DNA of 64,000 nucleotides from an uncultured Planctomycetales bacterium (GTDB lineage Bacteria > Omnitrophota > Gorgyraeia > Zapsychrales > JBDRMG01): contig CAYZIY010000007.1 in assembly GCA_964478715.1 (NCBI GenBank), positions 20,220 through 84,219 of the forward strand, read 5' to 3'. Made by a program: the position numbers and the translations under genes. Shown here in pieces: positions 3,715 to 61,625 of the stretch. The notes under the pieces were generated by a model. It made no database searches. It saw nothing but the letters and a program-made list of their open reading frames with translations, and had not been told where the DNA came from. Positions within the stretch are counted from its first letter, which is position 1; each line of letters begins with the position of its first letter.

Positions 3715-5547
3715 ATGTGCGGAATTGTCGGATACACCGGGGACAAGCAAGCTGTCCCTGTTTTGCTTGATAGCCTAAAAAAACTGGAATATCGAGGATA
3801 TGATTCCAGCGGAATCGGGGTCATCGCATCGTCAAACGGACACATTGCTCTTCGAAAAACTCAGGGAAAGATTCAGGACCTAGTGTCCTTAATTAAAACC
3901 AAAGTTCTCCCTTCTTCTCATGTCGGTATATCCCATACGCGTTGGGCCACTCATGGCAAGCCTAGTCGCAGTAATGCCCATCCTCATTTTGACGGTTCAA
4001 GAAAATTTCTTGTTGTTCACAACGGGATTATTGAAAACTATCAAATTCTTAAAGATATTCTCAAAAAGAAAGGCCATCGCTTCTTATCGGAAACCGATAC
4101 GGAAATCATTGCGCACTTGATCGAAGATTATTATCATGGTGATCTTCTCAAGGCTGTTCGCCTGGCCATCAAAAGATTGAAAGGGGCTTTTGCCTTGGGC
4201 GTAATCTCTAGCTATCACCCTAAACAGCTTGTCGCGGCTCGCATTGGGTCTCCTCTGATTGTCGGGATTGGGAAAGACGAAAACTATATTGCTTCCGATG
4301 TTCCGGCTATTTTGGATAAAACTAAAAAGGTGATTTATTTAAAAGACGAAGAAATGGCTCTGTTGACCAAAGACAGAGTTGGTATTTATTCCTTCTCGGG
4401 GTGCGAGGTCAAGGGTAAAATTCATACTGTTAACTATCCAATCGGCTCCGCCCAAAAAGAGGGCTTTCCTCATTTTATGCTCAAAGAAATTCATGAGCAG
4501 CCCAAAGTTTTATCTTCTATGTTTTCTTCTCGGATTAAAAAAGAGCGGATTGTTTTTGATGATTTAGGTTTAAAAGAAGAGGAGATTAAGCAGATTTCTA
4601 ATATTGAGATTGTGGCCTGCGGAACAGCCTATCATGCGGGTTTAGTCGGCCGATATGCGATCGAGAAGCTTTCGGGAATTCCCGTTCATGTAGATTTTTC
4701 CAGCGAATTTCGATATCGTCAGCCCATTATTGGCAAAAAAACTTTGGTCATGGCGATCAGTCAGTCGGGAGAGACGGCCGATACTCTAGCGGCTGTTCGG
4801 GAAGCTCGGAAAAAAGGAGCAAAGATTGTCTCAATTGTCAATGTTGTTGGCTCTTCCCTCGCACGAGAATCTCAAGGTGTTCTTTATACTCATGCCGGTC
4901 CCGAAATCGGGGTGGCTTCAACAAAAGCCTATACAGCACAATTGGGAATTCTGTATTTATTGGCTATCAATCTGGGAATGGCCAAAAAAAATCTGTCTGC
5001 CGGAGAGGCTAAAGAAATTTTTAAAAAACTAAAGGCTATTCCTCAGCTTTTAGCTGAGATTTTAAAAGAAAAAAATAAAATTGCCCAGATTGCCCGGGTT
5101 AATGCTCATTTTGGTTGTTTCCTTTTCTTAGGACGCAATGTGAATTTTCCTTCGGCTTTAGAAGGGGCTTTGAAACTCAAAGAAATTTCTTACATTCCGG
5201 CTGAAGGATATGCCGCCGGAGAAATGAAACATGGACCGATTGCTCTCATTGATGAATACCGAGCGGTTGTTTGTATTGCGCCGGAATCGGAGATTTACGA
5301 GAAAATGATTTCCAATATTCAGGAAATTCGGGCGCGAAAAGGAAAAATCATTGCGATAGCCACCAAAGGCGATACGGTAATCACTCAGAATGCCAACCAG
5401 GTTATTTTTTTGCCTTTGGTTGATCCTTTGCTTTCTCCCCTGGCTGTCACTCTGCCTCTGCAATTGATTGCTTATTACATTGCTGTCAAACGGGGTTGTG
5501 ATGTAGATCAGCCCAGGAATTTGGCGAAGTCGGTAACTGTTGAATAA
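3715..5547 (+). CDS. glmS: Glutamine--fructose-6-phosphate aminotransferase
   Basis: N-terminal MCGIVGY (Ntn amidotransferase Cys1), two SIS domains, 610 aa. Confidence 0.95.
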   Translation: MCGIVGYTGDKQAVPVLLDSLKKLEYRGYDSSGIGVIASSNGHIALRKTQGKIQDLVSLIKTKVLPSSHVGISHTRWATHGKPSRSNAHPHFDGSRKFLVVHNGIIENYQILKDILKKKGHRFLSETDTEIIAHLIEDYYHGDLLKAVRLAIKRLKGAFALGVISSYHPKQLVAARIGSPLIVGIGKDENYIASDVPAILDKTKKVIYLKDEEMALLTKDRVGIYSFSGCEVKGKIHTVNYPIGSAQKEGFPHFMLKEIHEQPKVLSSMFSSRIKKERIVFDDLGLKEEEIKQISNIEIVACGTAYHAGLVGRYAIEKLSGIPVHVDFSSEFRYRQPIIGKKTLVMAISQSGETADTLAAVREARKKGAKIVSIVNVVGSSLARESQGVLYTHAGPEIGVASTKAYTAQLGILYLLAINLGMAKKNLSAGEAKEIFKKLKAIPQLLAEILKEKNKIAQIARVNAHFGCFLFLGRNVNFPSALEGALKLKEISYIPAEGYAAGEMKHGPIALIDEYRAVVCIAPESEIYEKMISNIQEIRARKGKIIAIATKGDTVITQNANQVIFLPLVDPLLSPLAVTLPLQLIAYYIAVKRGCDVDQPRNLAKSVTVE

Positions 5548-54159: not shown

Positions 54160-55131
54160 ATGATTCAGGTGACCCGAAAAATTTCTGCCAAAAATCCGGT
54201 TTTGATTGCCGCCTGGCCGGGCATGGGCTATGTGGCTCTCAATGCGGCTAATTATCTGAAAGACCAGCTGAAGCCTGAAACCTTTGCCCGCTATCGAAGC
54301 GACCGGGTATTTTTCCAAAGAGACATTGAGGTCAGCGGCGGCTTGATCCGTCTGCCAAAAATTCCCGACGGCCAGTTTTATCACTGGAAAAATCCGGCTG
54401 GTCGTCATGATGTGATTTTTTTTATCAGTACCCAGCAGCCGCCGATGGAAAAAGGCCTGATCTATGCCCGCTCGATTGTTGATTTTATCGCTACATTCAA
54501 TATTCATACCGTCTATACCTTTGCCGCGCTTTTAACCTCGATGGATTACCTGCAGAGGCCCAAGGTTTGGTTGACAGCCACCGATAAAGATCTTTTGCAC
54601 CAACTCAAGGGAAAGAAAACGAAAATTCTACGCTCCGGTCATGTCAGCGGACTCAATGGTTTGTTTTTAGGCGCAGCCAAACAGCGCCATATCCGCGGGG
54701 CCTGTCTGCTGGGGGAGATTCCTTTTTACATGACGCAGATTGAAAACCCGCGCGCCTCTATGGCAGTGTTGGAGAAAATAAGCAGCATTTTGGGAATCAC
54801 TCTGGATTACCGTGAGCTGATCGCCGCCGATCAAACCCTGATTGAAGAAATAGAGAAATTGATTGAACAGGTCAGGGATCCCTCTAAAGAGCTACCCAGC
54901 GAACAGCCGATCTCCGACGAGGATATGGCTGTCTTTCGGAAAATGCTATCGGCCCAGTGCCGTCTGCCCAATTCGGCCCGGGAAGAAATCGAAGAGTTGT
55001 TTCACCGCGCCAAAGATGATCTGTCTCAGGCCCATTCGCTGAAGAAAAAGCTCGACGAATGGCATGCCTACCGTGATTATGAAGATCGGTTTCTGAGTCT
55101 TTTTAAGAAACATAACGAAGAAAACAATTAA
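54160..55131 (+). CDS. PAC2-family (proteasome-assembly-chaperone-like) protein
   Basis: N-terminal NPVLIAAWPGMGYVALNAANYL resembles the PAC2 family opening. 323 aa with an acidic C-terminal tail. Confidence 0.5.
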   Translation: MIQVTRKISAKNPVLIAAWPGMGYVALNAANYLKDQLKPETFARYRSDRVFFQRDIEVSGGLIRLPKIPDGQFYHWKNPAGRHDVIFFISTQQPPMEKGLIYARSIVDFIATFNIHTVYTFAALLTSMDYLQRPKVWLTATDKDLLHQLKGKKTKILRSGHVSGLNGLFLGAAKQRHIRGACLLGEIPFYMTQIENPRASMAVLEKISSILGITLDYRELIAADQTLIEEIEKLIEQVRDPSKELPSEQPISDEDMAVFRKMLSAQCRLPNSAREEIEELFHRAKDDLSQAHSLKKKLDEWHAYRDYEDRFLSLFKKHNEENN

Positions 55132-55133
55132 GG

Positions 55134-55802
55134 GTGAATACTCTAACGACCAAGCAAGCCCAAAGACTGGATCGTTATGCCATCGAGATTTTCGGGATCC
55201 CCTCGATTGTTTTGATGGAAAATGCCGGACGTCTGGTAGCAGAGTCGGTCAAGCGGAGATGGAAAAGAAAAAAGGATCGCGTGGTTGTGATTTGCGGCCC
55301 GGGAAACAATGCCGGCGACGGTTTTGTGACGGCGCGTCATCTTTATCTAAGCGGGATTCCTTGCCGTGTTTATTGTCTGAGTGATCCGCGAAAATTCAAG
55401 GAAGATTCCCGTATCAATTTTTCGCTTTTGAAAAAAAGTCAGTGTCCGGTAGCTCTCATCCGCAAAGTCGATGCCAAGGTTTTGCGTCAGTGGCGACAGG
55501 CCGCTTTGATTGTTGATGCGATTTTCGGTATTGGTTTGAACCGTGAGGTGGCCTCGCCCTTTAAGGAAGCAATTGAAGCGATCAATATCTGCCGTGGGCG
55601 TGTATTTGCCGTTGATATTCCTTCAGGGCTTAATGCTACCACTGGAGACATTTTTGGTTCTTGCATCAAAGCCGATGAAACCATTACGTTTGTGACGGTC
55701 AAAAGAGGATTTTGTCTTTCACAGGGTAAAGAAAGAGCGGGTCAAATCAAGGTGGTCGATATCGGTATTCCCGAGACGGTGATCCGTAAAGTGTTGCGAT
55801 GA
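55134..55802 (+). CDS. nnrE: NAD(P)H-hydrate epimerase (YjeF N-terminal domain)
   Basis: VVVICGPGNNAGDGFV and DAIFGIGL motifs of YjeF_N. Confidence 0.75.
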   Translation: MNTLTTKQAQRLDRYAIEIFGIPSIVLMENAGRLVAESVKRRWKRKKDRVVVICGPGNNAGDGFVTARHLYLSGIPCRVYCLSDPRKFKEDSRINFSLLKKSQCPVALIRKVDAKVLRQWRQAALIVDAIFGIGLNREVASPFKEAIEAINICRGRVFAVDIPSGLNATTGDIFGSCIKADETITFVTVKRGFCLSQGKERAGQIKVVDIGIPETVIRKVLR

Positions 55803-56461
55803 AAAATCCTACCCGCACAATCAGTCGCATCATTGAAATATTACAAAAAAATGCCGAAGAACTTAAAGATCCTTCCGTGACAATGGTCGCCAGGCAGTTT
55901 CAAGATCCGTTTCTGGTTCTGATTTCTTGTCTGCTGAGTTTGCGCACTAAAGACGCGGTCACGCTTAAGGCCAGCGAGCGGCTTTTTCGAATAGGCAAAA
56001 CACCCCAAACGATTACCCGGATTCCAGTTTCCAAAATTGAAAGGGCGATTTACCCGGTTGGATTTTACCGGACCAAGGCCCGGACCATTCGAACTCTTTG
56101 CCGCGATTTGGTCAAGAATTTTCACGGGCGTGTTCCCGATGATATCGAAACGCTCTTGACCTTTAAAGGCGTGGGACGCAAAACCGCTAATCTGGTTTTA
56201 ACCGAAGGATTTGGAAAACCGGGGATGTGTGTGGATACACATGTGCATCGGATTTCCAACCGGCTGGGATTTGTTCAAACCGCAAACCCTTTAGAAACCG
56301 AGATGGCCTTAAGAAAAAAGTTGCCTCAACGCTTTTGGATCGAGTATAATGCCTTACTTGTTATGTGGGGGCAGAATGTGTGCAAACCTGTTTCTCCTTT
56401 ATGTTCGCGTTGTGCTGTTTTTAAGTGGTGCGATCGAAAGAAAGTGAGTGTCAGCCGTTGA
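55799..56461 (+). CDS. nth: Endonuclease III (HhH-GPD DNA glycosylase with 4Fe-4S cluster)
   Basis: HhH-GPD (LLTFKGVGRKTANLVL...D) and C-x6-C-x2-C-x5-C (CKPVSPLCSRCAVFKWC). Confidence 0.85.
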   Translation: MKNPTRTISRIIEILQKNAEELKDPSVTMVARQFQDPFLVLISCLLSLRTKDAVTLKASERLFRIGKTPQTITRIPVSKIERAIYPVGFYRTKARTIRTLCRDLVKNFHGRVPDDIETLLTFKGVGRKTANLVLTEGFGKPGMCVDTHVHRISNRLGFVQTANPLETEMALRKKLPQRFWIEYNALLVMWGQNVCKPVSPLCSRCAVFKWCDRKKVSVSR

Positions 56462-56469
56462 ATAAGTAC

Positions 56470-56600
56470 ATTCAAGAAACAAGAAACAAGAAATAAATAA
56501 GCACCAAGTTCCAAATTACAAATCACAAGCGTTTGAAATCTGAATTTTTGAATTTGCATCTTGTTTGCATCTCGTAATTTGTATCTTCGTTACTGAAATC
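56470..56600. repeat. AT-rich leader containing short direct repeats (aacaagaaacaagaaa; ttgcatcttgtttgcatctcg; tttgtatcttcg) upstream of the MgtE-like gene
   Basis: Direct reading. No match to the M-box consensus recognisable. Confidence 0.4.
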
Positions 56601-56607
56601 GAAAATC

Positions 56608-57894
56608 ATGGACATCTTTATTTACTTTTCAGATTTATTAGGTTTGCCTGTTATCGATCATGCCGGTGAGAAAATCGGGGTATTTGATGATATGGCTCTA
56701 CGGGTGACCGATGAGAATTTCCCTCGGGCTACAACTCTCGTCGTCAAAAGAGGCAGGTTGCGTCCGCAGTTTGCCGAGATTGACTGGAGCCTGATCAAGA
56801 AAATCGATCAAACCATTACGCTTAAAGAAGAAGCGGGCGACGTTTCTTTTTCTCATTTTAAACCCAAACAGGATTTAGCGATCTGTGCCGATATCCTCGA
56901 CCGGCAGGTCGTGGATACCGATCACCAGAAAGTTGTGCGGGTCAATGATGTGCATCTTCTTCGCGTTGATCAACAGCTTTATCTGGCCCATGTGGATGTG
57001 AGTCTGCGTGCACTTTTGCGTCGTCTGGGGTGGGGTTCTTTTATCGATCGCTTGATGCATCTGCTGGTTCCGCGTTCTGCCTATTTTACAAAAGAAGAAT
57101 TTATCCCCTGGAAATACACTCAAGTATTGACTCTCGGGCGGACCCGCAATCTCCTGCGTCTGGAAGTGGCCCGGAAAAAGCTGGCTCAGATTCCTCCCAC
57201 GGAAATGGCCGAGATCATGGAAGATCTGGACATTTTTGAGAAATATTCCTTTTTCAAATCTTTGGATGTCGGCATCCAGAGAAAAGTTTTCTCCGATATG
57301 GCGACCAGCGAACAGGAAGAGCTGATCGATCAGATGAATGATCAGGAAGCCGTTGATCTGATCGAAGATATTCCCTCTGATGAGGCGGCTGACCTTTTGA
57401 TGAACCTGCCGAAAGAGAAAACCCTCAAATTTATGCGTCTGATGGAGACTGGCGATTCGAAACGGCTGCGCAAGCTACTGGGATTTGCGAAAGATTCAGC
57501 CGGCGGGTTAATGACAACGGAATATCTTTCCTTGCCTGAAGACTCTCTGGTCGAAGATGCCCTTCAGAAAATCAAAGACAATGTTCACTATCCAGGCAAT
57601 ATCTATCATATTTATCTGGTCGATTCTAAAGAGCGCTTAGAAGGCATTACTCCTTTAAGACGTTTTATCAGCGAGGACTTGAAAAAACCGCTGGCCGAGT
57701 GCTGCTTCCCTAAGACCGTCTCGGTGAAAACGGATGACGGCATGGAAGAGATTGCCTTGCTTTTGGAAAAATATAAATTCAGCGCCATTCCGGTTGTCGA
57801 TGAACAGAATGTTTTACAGGGTGTGATCACCGCCGATGACGTGATGGAAGAATTGATCGCCAATATTTGGGGCAAATACAAGGAGAAACTTTAG
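56608..57894 (+). CDS. Stand-alone MgtE-type cytosolic magnesium-sensing module (PRC-barrel, MgtE_N and tandem CBS) without the MgtE membrane domain
   Basis: MgtE_N-like acidic helices (DIPSDEAADLLMNLPKEKTLKFMRLME), CBS pair (IYHIYLVDSKERLEGITPLRRFI; IPVVDEQNVLQGVITADDVME). No TM segments. Confidence 0.7.
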   Translation: MDIFIYFSDLLGLPVIDHAGEKIGVFDDMALRVTDENFPRATTLVVKRGRLRPQFAEIDWSLIKKIDQTITLKEEAGDVSFSHFKPKQDLAICADILDRQVVDTDHQKVVRVNDVHLLRVDQQLYLAHVDVSLRALLRRLGWGSFIDRLMHLLVPRSAYFTKEEFIPWKYTQVLTLGRTRNLLRLEVARKKLAQIPPTEMAEIMEDLDIFEKYSFFKSLDVGIQRKVFSDMATSEQEELIDQMNDQEAVDLIEDIPSDEAADLLMNLPKEKTLKFMRLMETGDSKRLRKLLGFAKDSAGGLMTTEYLSLPEDSLVEDALQKIKDNVHYPGNIYHIYLVDSKERLEGITPLRRFISEDLKKPLAECCFPKTVSVKTDDGMEEIALLLEKYKFSAIPVVDEQNVLQGVITADDVMEELIANIWGKYKEKL

Positions 57895-59150
57895 TGGCCT
57901 TTAAGGACAATCGTTTTATCAAAAACATGCTTTTATTTCTGGCCATTATGGGTCCGGGTATTATCACGGCCAATGTGGATAATGACGCCGGCGGGATTGC
58001 GACGTATTCTTTGGCCGGCGCTCAATTCGGTTATTCGCTTTTATGGTCGCTGATTCCGATAACCCTTTCTCTCATTGTGGTTCAGGAAATGTGCGCGCGC
58101 ATGGCTGTGGCGACAGGCAAGGGCCTGGCGGATTTGATTCGTGAAAATTTTGGCGTCAAGGTTACGTTTTATCTGATGCTGGTGCTTTTATTTGTCAATC
58201 TCCTCAACACCATGGCTGAATTTGCCGGTGTGGCGGCGGCAATGGAGATTTTCGGAATTTATAAATGGCTTTCAGTTCCTCTGGCCGGGCTTTTTGTCTG
58301 GATGCTGGTGGTACGCGGGACATATAAATCCGTCGAGAAAATATTCCTGGCGGCCTGCTTTTTTTATGTGGCCTATGTGATTTCCGGTTTTATTGCTGAT
58401 CCCGATTGGGGGGAAGTGGCTCGGTCAACGATCCGGCCGCAGTTTTCTTTTGATTTGAAATATGCGGTGATGCTGGTCGGATTGATTGGAACCACCATTG
58501 CGCCCTGGATGCAGTTTTATCTACAGTCTTCCATTGTCGATAAAGGGATCAGTGCCGAGGAATACCGGCACTTGCGCATGGATGTCGTTGGCGGATGTAT
58601 CATCGCTCCTGTAGTGGCTTTTTTTATCGTAGTGGCTTGTGCGGCCACCATGCATCAGCACGGGGTTCATATCGAAAGCGCGAAAGATGCGGCTCTCGCT
58701 TTGCGTCCTTTGGCCGGGCCTTATGCCAGTCTGCTTTTTGCATTCGGACTTTTTAATGCCTCTATTTTTGCCGCCTCCGTGCTTCCTTTATCCACTGCTT
58801 ATTGTATCTGTGAGGGGATGGGCTGGAACGCGGGTGTGGACAGCCGTTTTGAAGAAGCGCCCCAGTTTTTCGGGCTCTACACGGCTATCATTCTGATCGG
58901 TGCCGGCGTTGTTCTCATTCCAAAATTTCCGCTTTTGAAAATCATGTATTTTTCTCAGGTCGGAAATGGAATCCTCCTTCCCTTTATTTTGATTTTCATG
59001 CTGATTCTCATTAACAATAAGGAGATCATGGGAGAATTCGTCAACAGCCGGTTGTTTAATATCGTGGCCTGGCTGACGGTTATTGTTGTCATCGCCTTGA
59101 CGTTTTTGATGTGCGCGTTTTTGGTGATGATGCCCGAGACGGTTCTTTAG
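57867..59150 (+). CDS. NRAMP-family divalent metal cation transporter
   Basis: GPGIITANVDNDAGGIATYSLAGAQFGYSLLW (NRAMP DPGN-type motif region), 11-12 TM. An alternative GTG start at 57894 has RBS AAGGAG 8 nt upstream. Confidence 0.8.
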   Translation: MGQIQGETLVAFKDNRFIKNMLLFLAIMGPGIITANVDNDAGGIATYSLAGAQFGYSLLWSLIPITLSLIVVQEMCARMAVATGKGLADLIRENFGVKVTFYLMLVLLFVNLLNTMAEFAGVAAAMEIFGIYKWLSVPLAGLFVWMLVVRGTYKSVEKIFLAACFFYVAYVISGFIADPDWGEVARSTIRPQFSFDLKYAVMLVGLIGTTIAPWMQFYLQSSIVDKGISAEEYRHLRMDVVGGCIIAPVVAFFIVVACAATMHQHGVHIESAKDAALALRPLAGPYASLLFAFGLFNASIFAASVLPLSTAYCICEGMGWNAGVDSRFEEAPQFFGLYTAIILIGAGVVLIPKFPLLKIMYFSQVGNGILLPFILIFMLILINNKEIMGEFVNSRLFNIVAWLTVIVVIALTFLMCAFLVMMPETVL

Positions 59151-59194
59151 ATTTCGAAATATACAAAATATACAAAAGGAAGTGAAAAATCTTG

Positions 59195-59403
59195 ACAACA
59201 CTTTTGATATATGATAAAAAAAATGATAATAGAAACTGAAAAGATAAGAAAAATTATATGAGAATTATCGACGAGAATCAAATATCAATGGAAGGCAAGG
59301 TGAAGGGAAGCTTCACTGAAAAGCTTCCTTTGGGAAGTTAGGAGAACAAAAGGAATTGAAAGAAGCGATACGATAGGGGACCTTAAAATTAAGGTCCCTT
59401 TTT
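59195..59403 (+). promoter_or_regulatory. Leader region upstream of the ATP-grasp/kamA pair: promoter-like TTGACA...TAAAAA, a 27-codon mini-ORF (MRIIDENQISMEGKVKGSFTEKLPLGS), an 8-bp hairpin and an intrinsic terminator (AGGGACCTTAAAATTAAGGTCCC plus TTTTT) ending 10 nt before the gene start
   Basis: Seen directly. The gene start at 59413 lacks a Shine-Dalgarno sequence, while AGGAG lies inside the leader. Confidence 0.4.
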
Positions 59404-59412
59404 CTGTGTATT

Positions 59413-60432
59413 ATGAAAAAAGTTATTGGACTGACATACGATTGCAAAGAAGATTGGAAGATGACAGAGGGTCTTCCGCGCGATTTTAACGCCGAGTTTG
59501 ATCCCCCTCAAACGATTGCGCAGATTATCGAGGCGATAGAAGCCTGTGGTTATCAAACAAAAAAGATTGGCAATGTTTATCAGTTATTGAAAATGATTGA
59601 TACGCTGGATGTGGACATTGTTTTCAATATTGCCGAAGGGTATTACGGGCGCAATCGCGAATCGCAGGTTCCTATTCTTTTAGAGGCCAAAAATATTCCC
59701 TACATAGGCAGCGACGGATTAACGCTGGGTTTGACTTTGGATAAAATCATTGCCAAGAAAATATTTCAGGCCGAAGGGGTTCCCACTCCGCGGTATTTTG
59801 AAGCCTCTTCCGTTGACAATTTAGAAAGAATGAACATGCTCGGCTATCCACTTTTCGTTAAAACCCGGCATGAAGGATCATCTAAAGGGCTTTCGGAAAA
59901 ATCCCGCGTTCACAGCAAGGAGGAATTAAAACGTCAGGTGGCTTTGATCAATGATGTCTATCAACAAAGTGCATTGGTCGAAGAATTTATCCGCGGCAGT
60001 GAATTTACCGTGGCCGTGATCGGCAATAAACAGCCCGAGGCGCTTCCGGTGGTTCAGATTCAGATCAACGGAAAGCTTGATTTGAAAGACGACTTCTATA
60101 CCTTTGCCCATATTTCTTCTGATAAAGTTCAATACATTTGCCCGGCGCCGATTGATGCAGGTCTTGAAAAGAAATTGAAAGACTTAGCCTTAAAGGTTTA
60201 TCAATCGGTGGGCTGTCGCGATCTCGGACGGATTGATTTTCGCGTTGATGAAAAAGGTAATCCTTATGTCCTTGAAATCAATCCTCTGCCCTGCTTGGGA
60301 CGTGATGATGTCTTTTATTTTATCCCCAAGGCGCTGGGATTCTCTTACGAAGAGATGATCGGCCGGATTATCGATCAGGGATTAGAGCGCAACGGACTTA
60401 ATAACGGAAAACTTGAGGAAGCAATCCGGTGA
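59413..60432 (+). CDS. D-alanine--D-alanine ligase-family ATP-grasp enzyme
   Basis: Ddl-like N-domain and ATP-grasp motifs (YPLFVKTRHEGSSKG, EINPLPCLG). Overlaps kamA by ATGA. Confidence 0.7.
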   Translation: MKKVIGLTYDCKEDWKMTEGLPRDFNAEFDPPQTIAQIIEAIEACGYQTKKIGNVYQLLKMIDTLDVDIVFNIAEGYYGRNRESQVPILLEAKNIPYIGSDGLTLGLTLDKIIAKKIFQAEGVPTPRYFEASSVDNLERMNMLGYPLFVKTRHEGSSKGLSEKSRVHSKEELKRQVALINDVYQQSALVEEFIRGSEFTVAVIGNKQPEALPVVQIQINGKLDLKDDFYTFAHISSDKVQYICPAPIDAGLEKKLKDLALKVYQSVGCRDLGRIDFRVDEKGNPYVLEINPLPCLGRDDVFYFIPKALGFSYEEMIGRIIDQGLERNGLNNGKLEEAIR

Positions 60433-61625
60433 AATCGTCAGAAACTATTGAAAGACAAAAAATCGTTCTCAAACAGGAAACCCAATCGCAGCCTGTCATT
60501 AATCTGACACGCAAAGAAAACCGTGTGTTTAACTTCTTTCATGATGCCACGCCTCTAGATTGGGAAGACTGGCGCTGGCAGCTTAGAAATCGCATTCGCA
60601 CCAAAGATGTTTTATCCAATGTGATCAATCTCACCGAAGAAGAGATTCAGGGTCTGGAGATGGTTAACGGACGGCCGAATATGGCTATTCCGCCTTATTT
60701 TGCTTCTCTAATGGATCCCGATGATCCCAAATGCCCGATTCGTCTTCAGTGCGTTCCCCGCAAACAGGAATTCATCAAAAGCGAGCACGAAATGGAAGAT
60801 CCCTGTGGGGAGGATAATCATTCACCCACACCGGGATTGGTTCATCGCTATCCGGATCGGGTTTTATTTTTGGTCAGCGAGATGTGTCCCATGTATTGCC
60901 GTTATTGTACCCGTTCGCGTTTAGTGGGAGACGGAAAGAAGAAACTCCGATCCTCCACTTATCAGGCCGCTTTTGATTATATCCGGACGAATAAAAAAAT
61001 CCGCGATGTTTTGATTTCCGGCGGTGATCCCTTGATTCTCGGCGATGAAATCCTCGAAGATATTATCGCTCAGGTCAAGGCCATTCCACATGTGGAATTT
61101 GTGCGCCTGGGCACGCGGGTTCCCGTAACATTGCCGCAGAGAATCACAGACGATCTTATCCGGATCTTTAAAAAATACAGTCCTCTTTGGATCAGTATTC
61201 ATTTTACGCATCCTAAGGAAATCACCAAGCGGGTACGGTTTGCCTGTGATTTGCTGGCCGAGAGCGGGATGCCTTTAGGGAGCCAGACCGTTTTGCTTAA
61301 GGGCATCAACGACAAGCCTTATATAATAAAGAAACTCATGCAGGAGCTTCTCAAGATTCGCGTCAGACCCTATTATATTTATCAATGCGATCCTATTTAC
61401 GGATCGGCGCATTTCCGCACGCCTCTTATCAGTGGAATCAATATCATCGATAAGCTCAGGGGGCACACCAGCGGTTATGCGGTGCCTACCTTTGTGGTCG
61501 ACAGTCCCGGCGGGGGCGGAAAAATTCCGGTTGGACCCGATTATGTTGTTTCCAAGACGGAAAAGACCGTTGTCCTTAAGAATTTTGCCGGCGAACAATA
61601 CACCCATTATGATCCCGATCAATAG
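60429..61625 (+). CDS. kamA: Lysine 2,3-aminomutase (radical SAM, KamA/AblA family)
   Basis: CPMYCRYCTRS radical-SAM cluster motif, PLP-binding region, C-terminal zinc-site cysteines. Confidence 0.85.
   Translation: MKSSETIERQKIVLKQETQSQPVINLTRKENRVFNFFHDATPLDWEDWRWQLRNRIRTKDVLSNVINLTEEEIQGLEMVNGRPNMAIPPYFASLMDPDDPKCPIRLQCVPRKQEFIKSEHEMEDPCGEDNHSPTPGLVHRYPDRVLFLVSEMCPMYCRYCTRSRLVGDGKKKLRSSTYQAAFDYIRTNKKIRDVLISGGDPLILGDEILEDIIAQVKAIPHVEFVRLGTRVPVTLPQRITDDLIRIFKKYSPLWISIHFTHPKEITKRVRFACDLLAESGMPLGSQTVLLKGINDKPYIIKKLMQELLKIRVRPYYIYQCDPIYGSAHFRTPLISGINIIDKLRGHTSGYAVPTFVVDSPGGGGKIPVGPDYVVSKTEKTVVLKNFAGEQYTHYDPDQ

Follow-up and report, generated by a model that had tools for sequence, protein, structure and literature searches.

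Among the Mg2+ importers of bacteria, the NRAMP-related Mg2+ transporters (NRMTs) form the fourth class. The group was defined under the name NrmT by Shin et al. (2014, PLoS Genet, PMC4072509), who (i) reported that its genes adjoin a gene for an MgtE-like fragment, (ii) speculated that this fragment exerts feedback regulation from the cytoplasm or serves as a metal chaperone, and (iii) found an M-box upstream of many, though not all, group members. In MgtE, the homologous module, composed of an N-domain and a pair of CBS domains, is an inhibitory Mg2+ clamp (PMC5882242). Here, we analyzed such a gene pair in a 64,000-nt stretch of DNA (the window; GenBank assembly GCA_964478715.1, contig CAYZIY010000007.1) from an uncultured bacterium of the Omnitrophota, in which two co-oriented open reading frames (ORFs), ORF1 followed by ORF2, occupy positions 56608-59150 of the forward strand. 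The locus is a two-gene unit in which an NRMT-type transporter (ORF2) is translationally coupled to a soluble PRC/MgtE_N/CBS protein (ORF1, referred to with its homologs as the sensor), and the two are linked across phyla. The original prediction, made from the sequence of the window, had regarded this pairing as a possible novelty; the gene pair and the feedback hypothesis have, however, been known since 2014 (PMC4072509), and the mechanism is one that we only infer.

The locus shares with the pairs of Shin et al., namely the Ca_c0685 operon of Clostridium acetobutylicum and Acp2976/Acp2977 of Acidobacterium capsulatum, an Nramp-related outgroup transporter with a co-oriented homolog of the MgtE cytoplasmic domain encoded just upstream, and both this locus and the A. 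capsulatum pair are without an M-box. It differs from them in its host, which here belongs to the Omnitrophota, and in that ORF1 is one gene, whereas the C. acetobutylicum homolog is split in two. Further, the fragment was called "small" in the 2014 account and its PRC region went unmentioned, whereas this region makes up ∼40% of ORF1. The stop codon of ORF1 (TAG) and the start codon of ORF2 (GTG at 57894) overlap as TAGTG, which is the overlap that had been predicted from the sequence. Because of this overlap, the AAGGAG ribosome-binding site preceding it, and the 418-aa protein on public record, GTG at 57894 is almost certainly the start of ORF2, and it was preferred to the TTG at 57867 given in the ORF list. 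The stop/start overlap is thus real and looks like translational coupling of ORF1 and ORF2.

ORF2 matches the entire Nramp profile (PF01566, positions 1-357 of 357, E 5.3e-105). It scored 389.7 bits against EleNRMT, the crystallized NRMT of Eggerthella lenta (PDB 7QIA), as compared with 118.8 bits against the best MntH (DraNramp), and its score with the NCBIfam MntH model (152 bits) was below the cut-off of 430; the identity between ORF2 and EleNRMT is 46.6% over 408 ungapped aligned positions. Judged by its sequence, ORF2 is a member of the NRMT clade rather than a generic NRAMP protein. The canonical DPGN motif is replaced by DAGG, and A-x-x-M-P-H is replaced by T-T-I-A-P-W, so that MPH becomes APW; the metal-site residues, which the original prediction had singled out for inspection, are thus of the Mg type, and the partner that it had called an NRAMP-family transporter is specifically an NRMT. 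The site residues of ORF2 (D31, G34, T200, A203, W205, and Q355, in 418-aa numbering) carry the signature of the clade, with Asn to Gly in transmembrane helix 1 (TM1), Ala to Thr, Met to Ala, and His to Trp in TM6, and Gln in TM10. Among them, D31, G34, T200, and Q355 match D55, G58, T224, and Q379 of EleNRMT, while A203 and W205 stand at the Met-to-Ala and His-to-Trp positions. In comparison with the EleNRMT structures (PDB 7QIA, 7QIC, 7QJI, and 7QJJ), ORF2 agrees in the substrate-site residues (D, G, T, A, and Q) and in the His-to-Trp replacement, and it differs at the second TM6b histidine position, which is Leu in ORF2 and Asn in EleNRMT; both TM6b histidine positions are therefore replaced in ORF2, by W and L. 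In EleNRMT, D55 and Q379 are essential, T224 is needed specifically for Mg2+, and the absence of both TM6b histidines accompanies the absence of proton coupling (eLife 2022, PMC8806188). By homology to EleNRMT, ORF2 would be a Mg2+ (and Mn2+) transporter without proton coupling.

The soluble partner, ORF1, was likewise well described by the original prediction, in that Pfam and NCBIfam agree on a 428-aa protein with a PRC domain, an MgtE N-domain, and two CBS domains, and without the MgtE pore. In Pfam, the PRC barrel (PF05239) scored 25.6 bits against a cut-off of 21.2, MgtE_N matched residues 196-296 (E 1.5e-19), two CBS stretches reached up to residue 416 (E 1.4e-17), and no match to the pore family PF01769 was obtained in ORF1. 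The NCBIfam mgtE equivalog (TIGR00400) gave 156 bits, which is under its cut-off of 232.75, and it aligned only through profile positions 21-251 of 450. No transmembrane helix was found in ORF1, as had been predicted, the maximal Kyte-Doolittle value being 1.08 over 19-residue windows (threshold 1.6). A complete MgtE is ruled out by the absent pore, the lack of transmembrane helices, and the partial equivalog match.

The closest solved relatives of ORF1 are the cytosolic domains of MgtE (Thermus thermophilus, PDB 2YVY, E 7e-33, residues 188-418), and an AlphaFold2 (AF2) model of the full protein, built from 20 homologs with a mean predicted local distance difference test score (pLDDT) of 80, found these same domains as its best structural matches (E ∼1e-18). 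The model consists of beta-rich lobes at residues 4-72 and 100-173, an all-helical N-domain, and a CBS pair ending in a long helix. Residues 1-190, modeled on their own with AF2 (pLDDT 81, predicted template modeling score 0.75), were closest to the archaeal PRC-barrel division proteins CdpB1 and CdpB2 of Archaeoglobus fulgidus (137-148 columns, E 4e-5), an alignment longer than one barrel, and next to single PRC barrels; MTH1859, RimM, and reaction-centre H subunits were among the matches. The second lobe alone (residues 97-173) had no Pfam match, and hhalign detected a weak internal similarity between it and the first PRC domain (E 2e-4, probability 47%, 34 columns). This second lobe contains the most conserved block of the family, LDxQVVDxxxxKVVRVND...VDV..R..RRL.

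In comparison with T. thermophilus MgtE (TtMgtE; PDB 2YVX and 2ZY9), ORF1 shares the homologous N-domain, the CBS pair, and the acidic residues of the Mg4 and Mg6 sites, and it differs in having neither the plug helix, nor the five-helix pore, nor the Mg2, Mg3, and Mg7 ligands, as well as in its additional N-terminal PRC region of ∼187 residues. To place the Mg2+-site residues of TtMgtE, whose gating roles have been described (PMC5882242), we mapped them onto ORF1 by way of the HMMER alignment. At Mg4, TtMgtE D91 corresponds to ORF1 D258, which is kept in 20/20 close homologs and in 36/39 diverse sensors, and D247 corresponds to D411, which is kept in 20/20 and 34/39, respectively; at Mg6, D95 corresponds to D262, which is kept in all 20 close homologs and all 39 diverse sensors. 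This conservation of the acidic Mg4 and Mg6 residues makes it plausible that the N-domain is clamped onto the CBS pair by Mg2+.

The association of the two genes recurs widely. An ORF1 alignment of 20 sequences, run against 185,579 species genomes, identified 380 relatives. The best 80 loci of these 380 come almost all from Omnitrophota metagenome-assembled genomes, which places the organism of the window in this phylum, and among these 80 an NRMT gene lies directly 3' of the sensor gene on the same strand in 66/80 (66/79 informative loci), usually at a spacing of 13-170 nt. The 14 loci without an NRMT match comprise 12 orphan sensors, one locus with a different gene after the sensor (L036), and one whose sequence ends at the sensor (L045). 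A metagenome scan with a 10-sequence alignment, seeded with sensors that are only ∼30-35% identical to ORF1, yielded 80 loci of a second, more distant clade, in 72 of which an NRMT adjoins the sensor (71 times downstream in the same orientation, once upstream); of the other eight, seven break off too early for a judgment, and in a single one no match was obtained although 705 nt were available (72/73 informative). The sensor-linked transporters retain the NRMT signature, with D31 present in 72/72, T200 in 64/64, and W205 in 64/64 members of the second clade. In addition, Paraeggerthella and related contigs contain a PRC/MgtE_N/CBS gene of 450 aa (3644-4996 in L082 and 3645-4997 in L084) that ends 4 nt before the NRMT start; the encoded protein and ORF1 share 33% identity across 418 residues, and the adjoining Eggerthellaceae NRMTs are 91-92% identical to the crystallized EleNRMT. 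EleNRMT was studied alone and without mention of a partner, whereas its close relatives carry the sensor gene 4 nt upstream. The original prediction would have fallen had the pair never co-occurred elsewhere; it is instead almost obligatory in two clades and is also found in the Eggerthellaceae.

Two side observations concern these loci. First, a gene for an Rrf2-family regulator lies, in convergent orientation, just downstream of the Eggerthellaceae NRMT. Second, similarity to the window pair is discordant between the two partners, since sensors with 48-52% identity occur with NRMTs of 51-54% identity (L043, L044, L048-L051, and L033), and sensors with only 38-41% identity occur with NRMTs of 60-64% identity (L053-L080); this discordance hints at either an exchange of partners or unequal evolutionary rates.

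A search of 1.84 billion representatives with ORF1 returned 402 clusters (50% identity) at E <= 1e-30, most of which are 400-450 aa in length and align end to end. Among the top 150 representatives, 121 have 398-498 aa, and nearly all align with ORF1 from residue ∼5 to ∼415; the PRC region is a regular part of the sensor family. Another 22 of the 150 are ∼574-656 aa long, and in most of these the CBS pair is followed by 4-5 hydrophobic segments. The PF01769 pore was detected in two such MgtE-like proteins of ∼600 aa that carry an ORF1-type PRC region (P0378 and P0464), and the C-terminal membrane part of several others is too divergent for PF01769. Moreover, one protein of 1314 aa (P0466, a single 90%-identity cluster present on two contigs) has PRC, MgtE_N, and CBS domains fused N-terminally to a magnesium-translocating P-type ATPase of the MgtA/MgtB family, the ATPase part scoring 1121 bits with TIGR01524 (cut-off 611) and 1146 bits with NF011702 (cut-off 975). 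Residues ∼5-415 of ORF1 align to the N-terminal 400 residues of these fusion proteins with 31-37% identity; their transporter, be it an MgtE-type pore or an Mg2+ P-type ATPase, is provided in cis, whereas ORF1 has a separately encoded LeuT-fold protein as its partner. A split or swapped architecture, as had been proposed for the locus, gains support from the occurrence of the same module in fusion with MgtE-type pores and an MgtA-type ATPase. When the fusions are considered together with the NRMT pairing, three of the four known Mg2+ importer classes have the PRC-MgtE_N-CBS module as a companion, which is the strongest comparative argument for a direct action on a transporter and for a role in Mg2+ homeostasis. 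As a tentative generalization, which we regard as possible without favoring it, PRC-MgtE_N-CBS could be a portable Mg2+-sensing gate placed on three mechanistically unrelated Mg2+ importers, namely in cis on an MgtE-type pore, in cis on an MgtA-type P-type ATPase, and in trans on an NRMT, with the PRC-like lobe as its docking surface.

For the locus itself, we infer, with a probability of roughly 55%, that ORF1 binds Mg2+ at the interface of its N-domain and CBS pair, closes, and inhibits the NRMT, probably by means of its PRC-like lobe and/or its tail, resulting in rapid negative feedback. ORF1 and ORF2 would be produced from one transcript by coupled translation, and ORF1 would be the soluble accessory subunit of an NRMT magnesium-uptake module. 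Cytosolic Mg2+ would be bound in the manner of the Mg4 and Mg6 sites of MgtE; when Mg2+ is replete, ORF1 would clamp shut, and the closed form would hold the transporter inactive through the PRC region and/or the basic C-terminal tail. The outcome would be a fast negative feedback on a transporter that would otherwise load Mg2+ down the membrane potential.

Several observations weigh against this mechanism. Among the mapped residues, TtMgtE D226 of Mg5 is lost (K390 in ORF1), its companion D250 being still acidic (E414); E59 of Mg7 is replaced by K226, a position that is basic in the clade; and the plug-helix residues E258 and D259 of Mg2/Mg3 have no counterpart in ORF1, where the short tail W421-x-K-Y424-K-x-x-L, which has none of the acidic Mg2/Mg3 residues, stands in place of the plug helix. 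Twelve Omnitrophota loci (L008, L010, L012, L014, L020, L026, L027, L030, L032, L034, L047, and L052) keep an intact sensor, and their fetched flanks (at most 4 kb per side) contain no NRMT. In these loci, the sensor (at ∼4001-5290 in most) is followed directly by ddl-like and KamA-like genes, as is ORF2 in the window, and the NRMT has either been relocated in the genome or the sensor has another target. A crude mirror-tree comparison of 15-33 taxa gave r values of 0.31-0.46 for sensor and NRMT, against 0.32-0.61 for the sensor and its neighbors (nth-like, ddl-like, and kamA-like), which we list here and weigh neither way. From the literature, co-expression of the A. capsulatum partner Acp2976 gave no better Mg2+ rescue of a transport mutant, and the A. 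capsulatum transporter behaved mainly as a Mn2+ carrier (PMC4072509); growth rescue was the sole read-out of 2014 and would overlook a lost negative regulator. Further, transport by the NRMTs of C. acetobutylicum and E. lenta takes place in the absence of a partner (PMC4072509, PMC8806188).

The best-surviving alternative, although an unlikely one in our estimate, is that the sensor-like protein is a positive factor, i.e., an activator, a subunit for assembly or stability, or a cytosolic acceptor (chaperone) for Mg2+/Mn2+ coming from the transporter, rather than an inhibitory gate. The chaperone version was raised by Shin et al. (PMC4072509), the tight 1:1 translational coupling and near-obligate linkage would suit a stoichiometric subunit, and the domains concerned are acidic, with 24 D+E versus 16 K+R in MgtE_N and 23 versus 12 in the CBS pair. 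Against a positive factor speak the NRMTs that function alone in heterologous cells and in liposomes, as well as the inhibitory character of the homologous clamp in MgtE; as for a Mg2+ chaperone, it would have no obvious role where cytosolic free Mg2+ is millimolar.

Adjacency could also reflect co-expression only, with the PRC-MgtE_N-CBS protein acting on a target of its own (another transporter or a non-transport process) and making no contact with the NRMT. The twelve orphan loci are what this explanation would lead one to expect, all the more as two orphans (P0091 and P0120) retain the invariant residues and the tail, and both the lack of excess sensor-NRMT covariation in the mirror-tree comparison, which we weigh neither way, and the negative co-expression test of 2014 are in keeping with it. 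We nevertheless consider it rather improbable, given the same-strand adjacency in 66/79 and 72/73 informative loci across phyla, the overlap of the ORF1 stop with the ORF2 start, and the cis fusions to two other Mg2+ importers, which argue for direct physical coupling.

An explanation that we rate as quite improbable holds that the module uses its CBS pair chiefly to read adenine nucleotides, and hence the energy state, so that transport would follow the ATP level, with Mg2+ binding being secondary. ATP bound in the CBS pair of TtMgtE tunes its Mg2+ sensitivity (PMC5529423), and the nucleotide-binding CBS proteins AcuB and CBSX were among the matches of our structure search. Of the six ATP-contact positions, three are kept in ORF1 (R187, V207, and F227, aligned with R351, V371, and F391, respectively), whereas Y170, D188, and N203 are replaced in this clade by H, R, and F, respectively, and the F227 position is a Leu in 22/39 diverse sensors. 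The interface aspartates of Mg4 and Mg6 are much better conserved than these contacts, and ATP binding by the CBS pair of ORF1, as judged from its residues, is uncertain. Finally, the notion that ORF1 is what decay has left of a full-length mgtE after loss of the pore, which would fit an mgtE equivalog match confined to the first half of the model, is effectively refuted by the intact and conserved ∼428-aa form, with most of the 402 clusters described above being 400-450 aa long and aligned end to end, and by a mean column identity within the clade of 68% with conserved C terminus and stop.

With regard to the feedback mechanism, NRMTs are, by homology with EleNRMT, not proton-coupled, and a brake against Mg2+ overload would therefore be needed; such a brake has had an obvious candidate, the MgtE-like partner, since 2014. 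The accessory protein is not addressed in the paper on the EleNRMT structure, in the reviews by Cellier, or in a 2026 review of Mg2+ transporters, and no later work on it, or on a combination of PRC and MgtE, was found in the searched literature, which has most subscription journals outside it. Within that literature, we did not meet (i) the constant presence and highest conservation of the PRC region, (ii) the fusions, (iii) the conservation of the Mg4 and Mg6 residues, or (iv) the twelve orphan loci. The locus represents no new type of system; the comparative findings sharpen the brake hypothesis and ease its testing, the handles being the partner gene beside EleNRMT relatives, the conserved Mg4/Mg6 clamp residues, the fusions, and the conserved PRC-like lobe. 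If PRC-MgtE_N-CBS is indeed a portable gate, SLC11-family carriers would be regulable post-translationally by a dissociable CBS-domain subunit, and the published in vitro and structural work on NRMTs would have covered half of the native machine.

The features of the locus are listed in Table 1. The hairpin downstream of ORF2 was found by a consensus scan only and is probably the end of the two-gene unit.

Table 1. Features of the ORF1-ORF2 locus in window coordinates.
Feature	Position	Strand	Basis or remark
Intergenic leader between nth-like gene and ORF1	56462..56607	+	Contains triple repeat and A-rich repeat
ORF1, soluble MgtE-like cytosolic module, 428 aa, no pore	56608..57894	+	PRC, PRC-like lobe, MgtE_N, CBS pair
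PRC-barrel domain, residues 4-74	56617..56829	+	Pfam PF05239; AF2 model of residues 1-190
Second beta-rich, PRC-like lobe, residues 97-173	56896..57126	+	Invariant columns; weak similarity to first PRC
MgtE N-domain, residues 188-296	57169..57495	+	Pfam MgtE_N; alignment to TtMgtE
CBS pair, residues 297-418	57496..57861	+	Pfam CBS; alignment to TtMgtE
Conserved basic/aromatic C-terminal tail, W421-x-K-Y424-K-x-x-L	57862..57891	+	Alignment
AAGGAG ribosome-binding site for ORF2, within ORF1 3' end	57880..57885	+	8 nt before GTG
ORF2, NRMT-clade NRAMP-family transporter, 418 aa	57894..59150	+	GTG start overlapping ORF1 stop
Terminator-like hairpin after ORF2, 11-bp stem followed by T-run	59375..59400	+	Consensus scan only

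The leader of ORF1 contains three tandem-like copies of TTTGYATCTYG at 56553-56588, 20-55 nt upstream of the ORF1 start, as well as an A-rich repeat at 56473-56496, which agrees with the short repeats and the lack of a recognizable M-box noted in the original prediction. No Rfam family, including the M-box (RF00380), matched at E <= 10 in 55500-59600, and no M-box reached the gathering threshold in 16 related loci and two Eggerthellaceae loci. The leader RNA folded no better than shuffled sequence (z 0.11), and the TTTGYATCTYG motif was absent upstream of 23 orthologous genes. With no Rfam match, no excess of folding, and no conservation, the repeats were regarded as local and rejected as an M-box or other riboswitch. 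In the examined loci, no M-box was thus found to provide the transcriptional Mg2+ control that Shin et al. reported for many group members. Elsewhere in the window, TTTGYATCTYG occurs at chance frequency, the triple cluster being unique in the window; this cluster could be a strain-specific operator, or it could be meaningless.

Upstream of the leader, at 54160-56461 on the same strand, the window encodes PAC2-family, YjeF_N (NAD(P)HX epimerase-like), and HhH-GPD (endonuclease III-like) proteins; the genes for the latter two overlap by 4 nt, and an nth-like gene lies immediately 5' of the sensor gene in many related loci. Downstream lie an ATP-grasp (D-Ala-D-Ala-ligase-like) gene at 59413-60432 and a KamA-family radical-SAM (lysine 2,3-aminomutase-like) gene at 60429-61625, which share 4 nt. 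This gene pair, whose product may be beta-lysine-derived, is syntenic with the sensor locus in many Omnitrophota.

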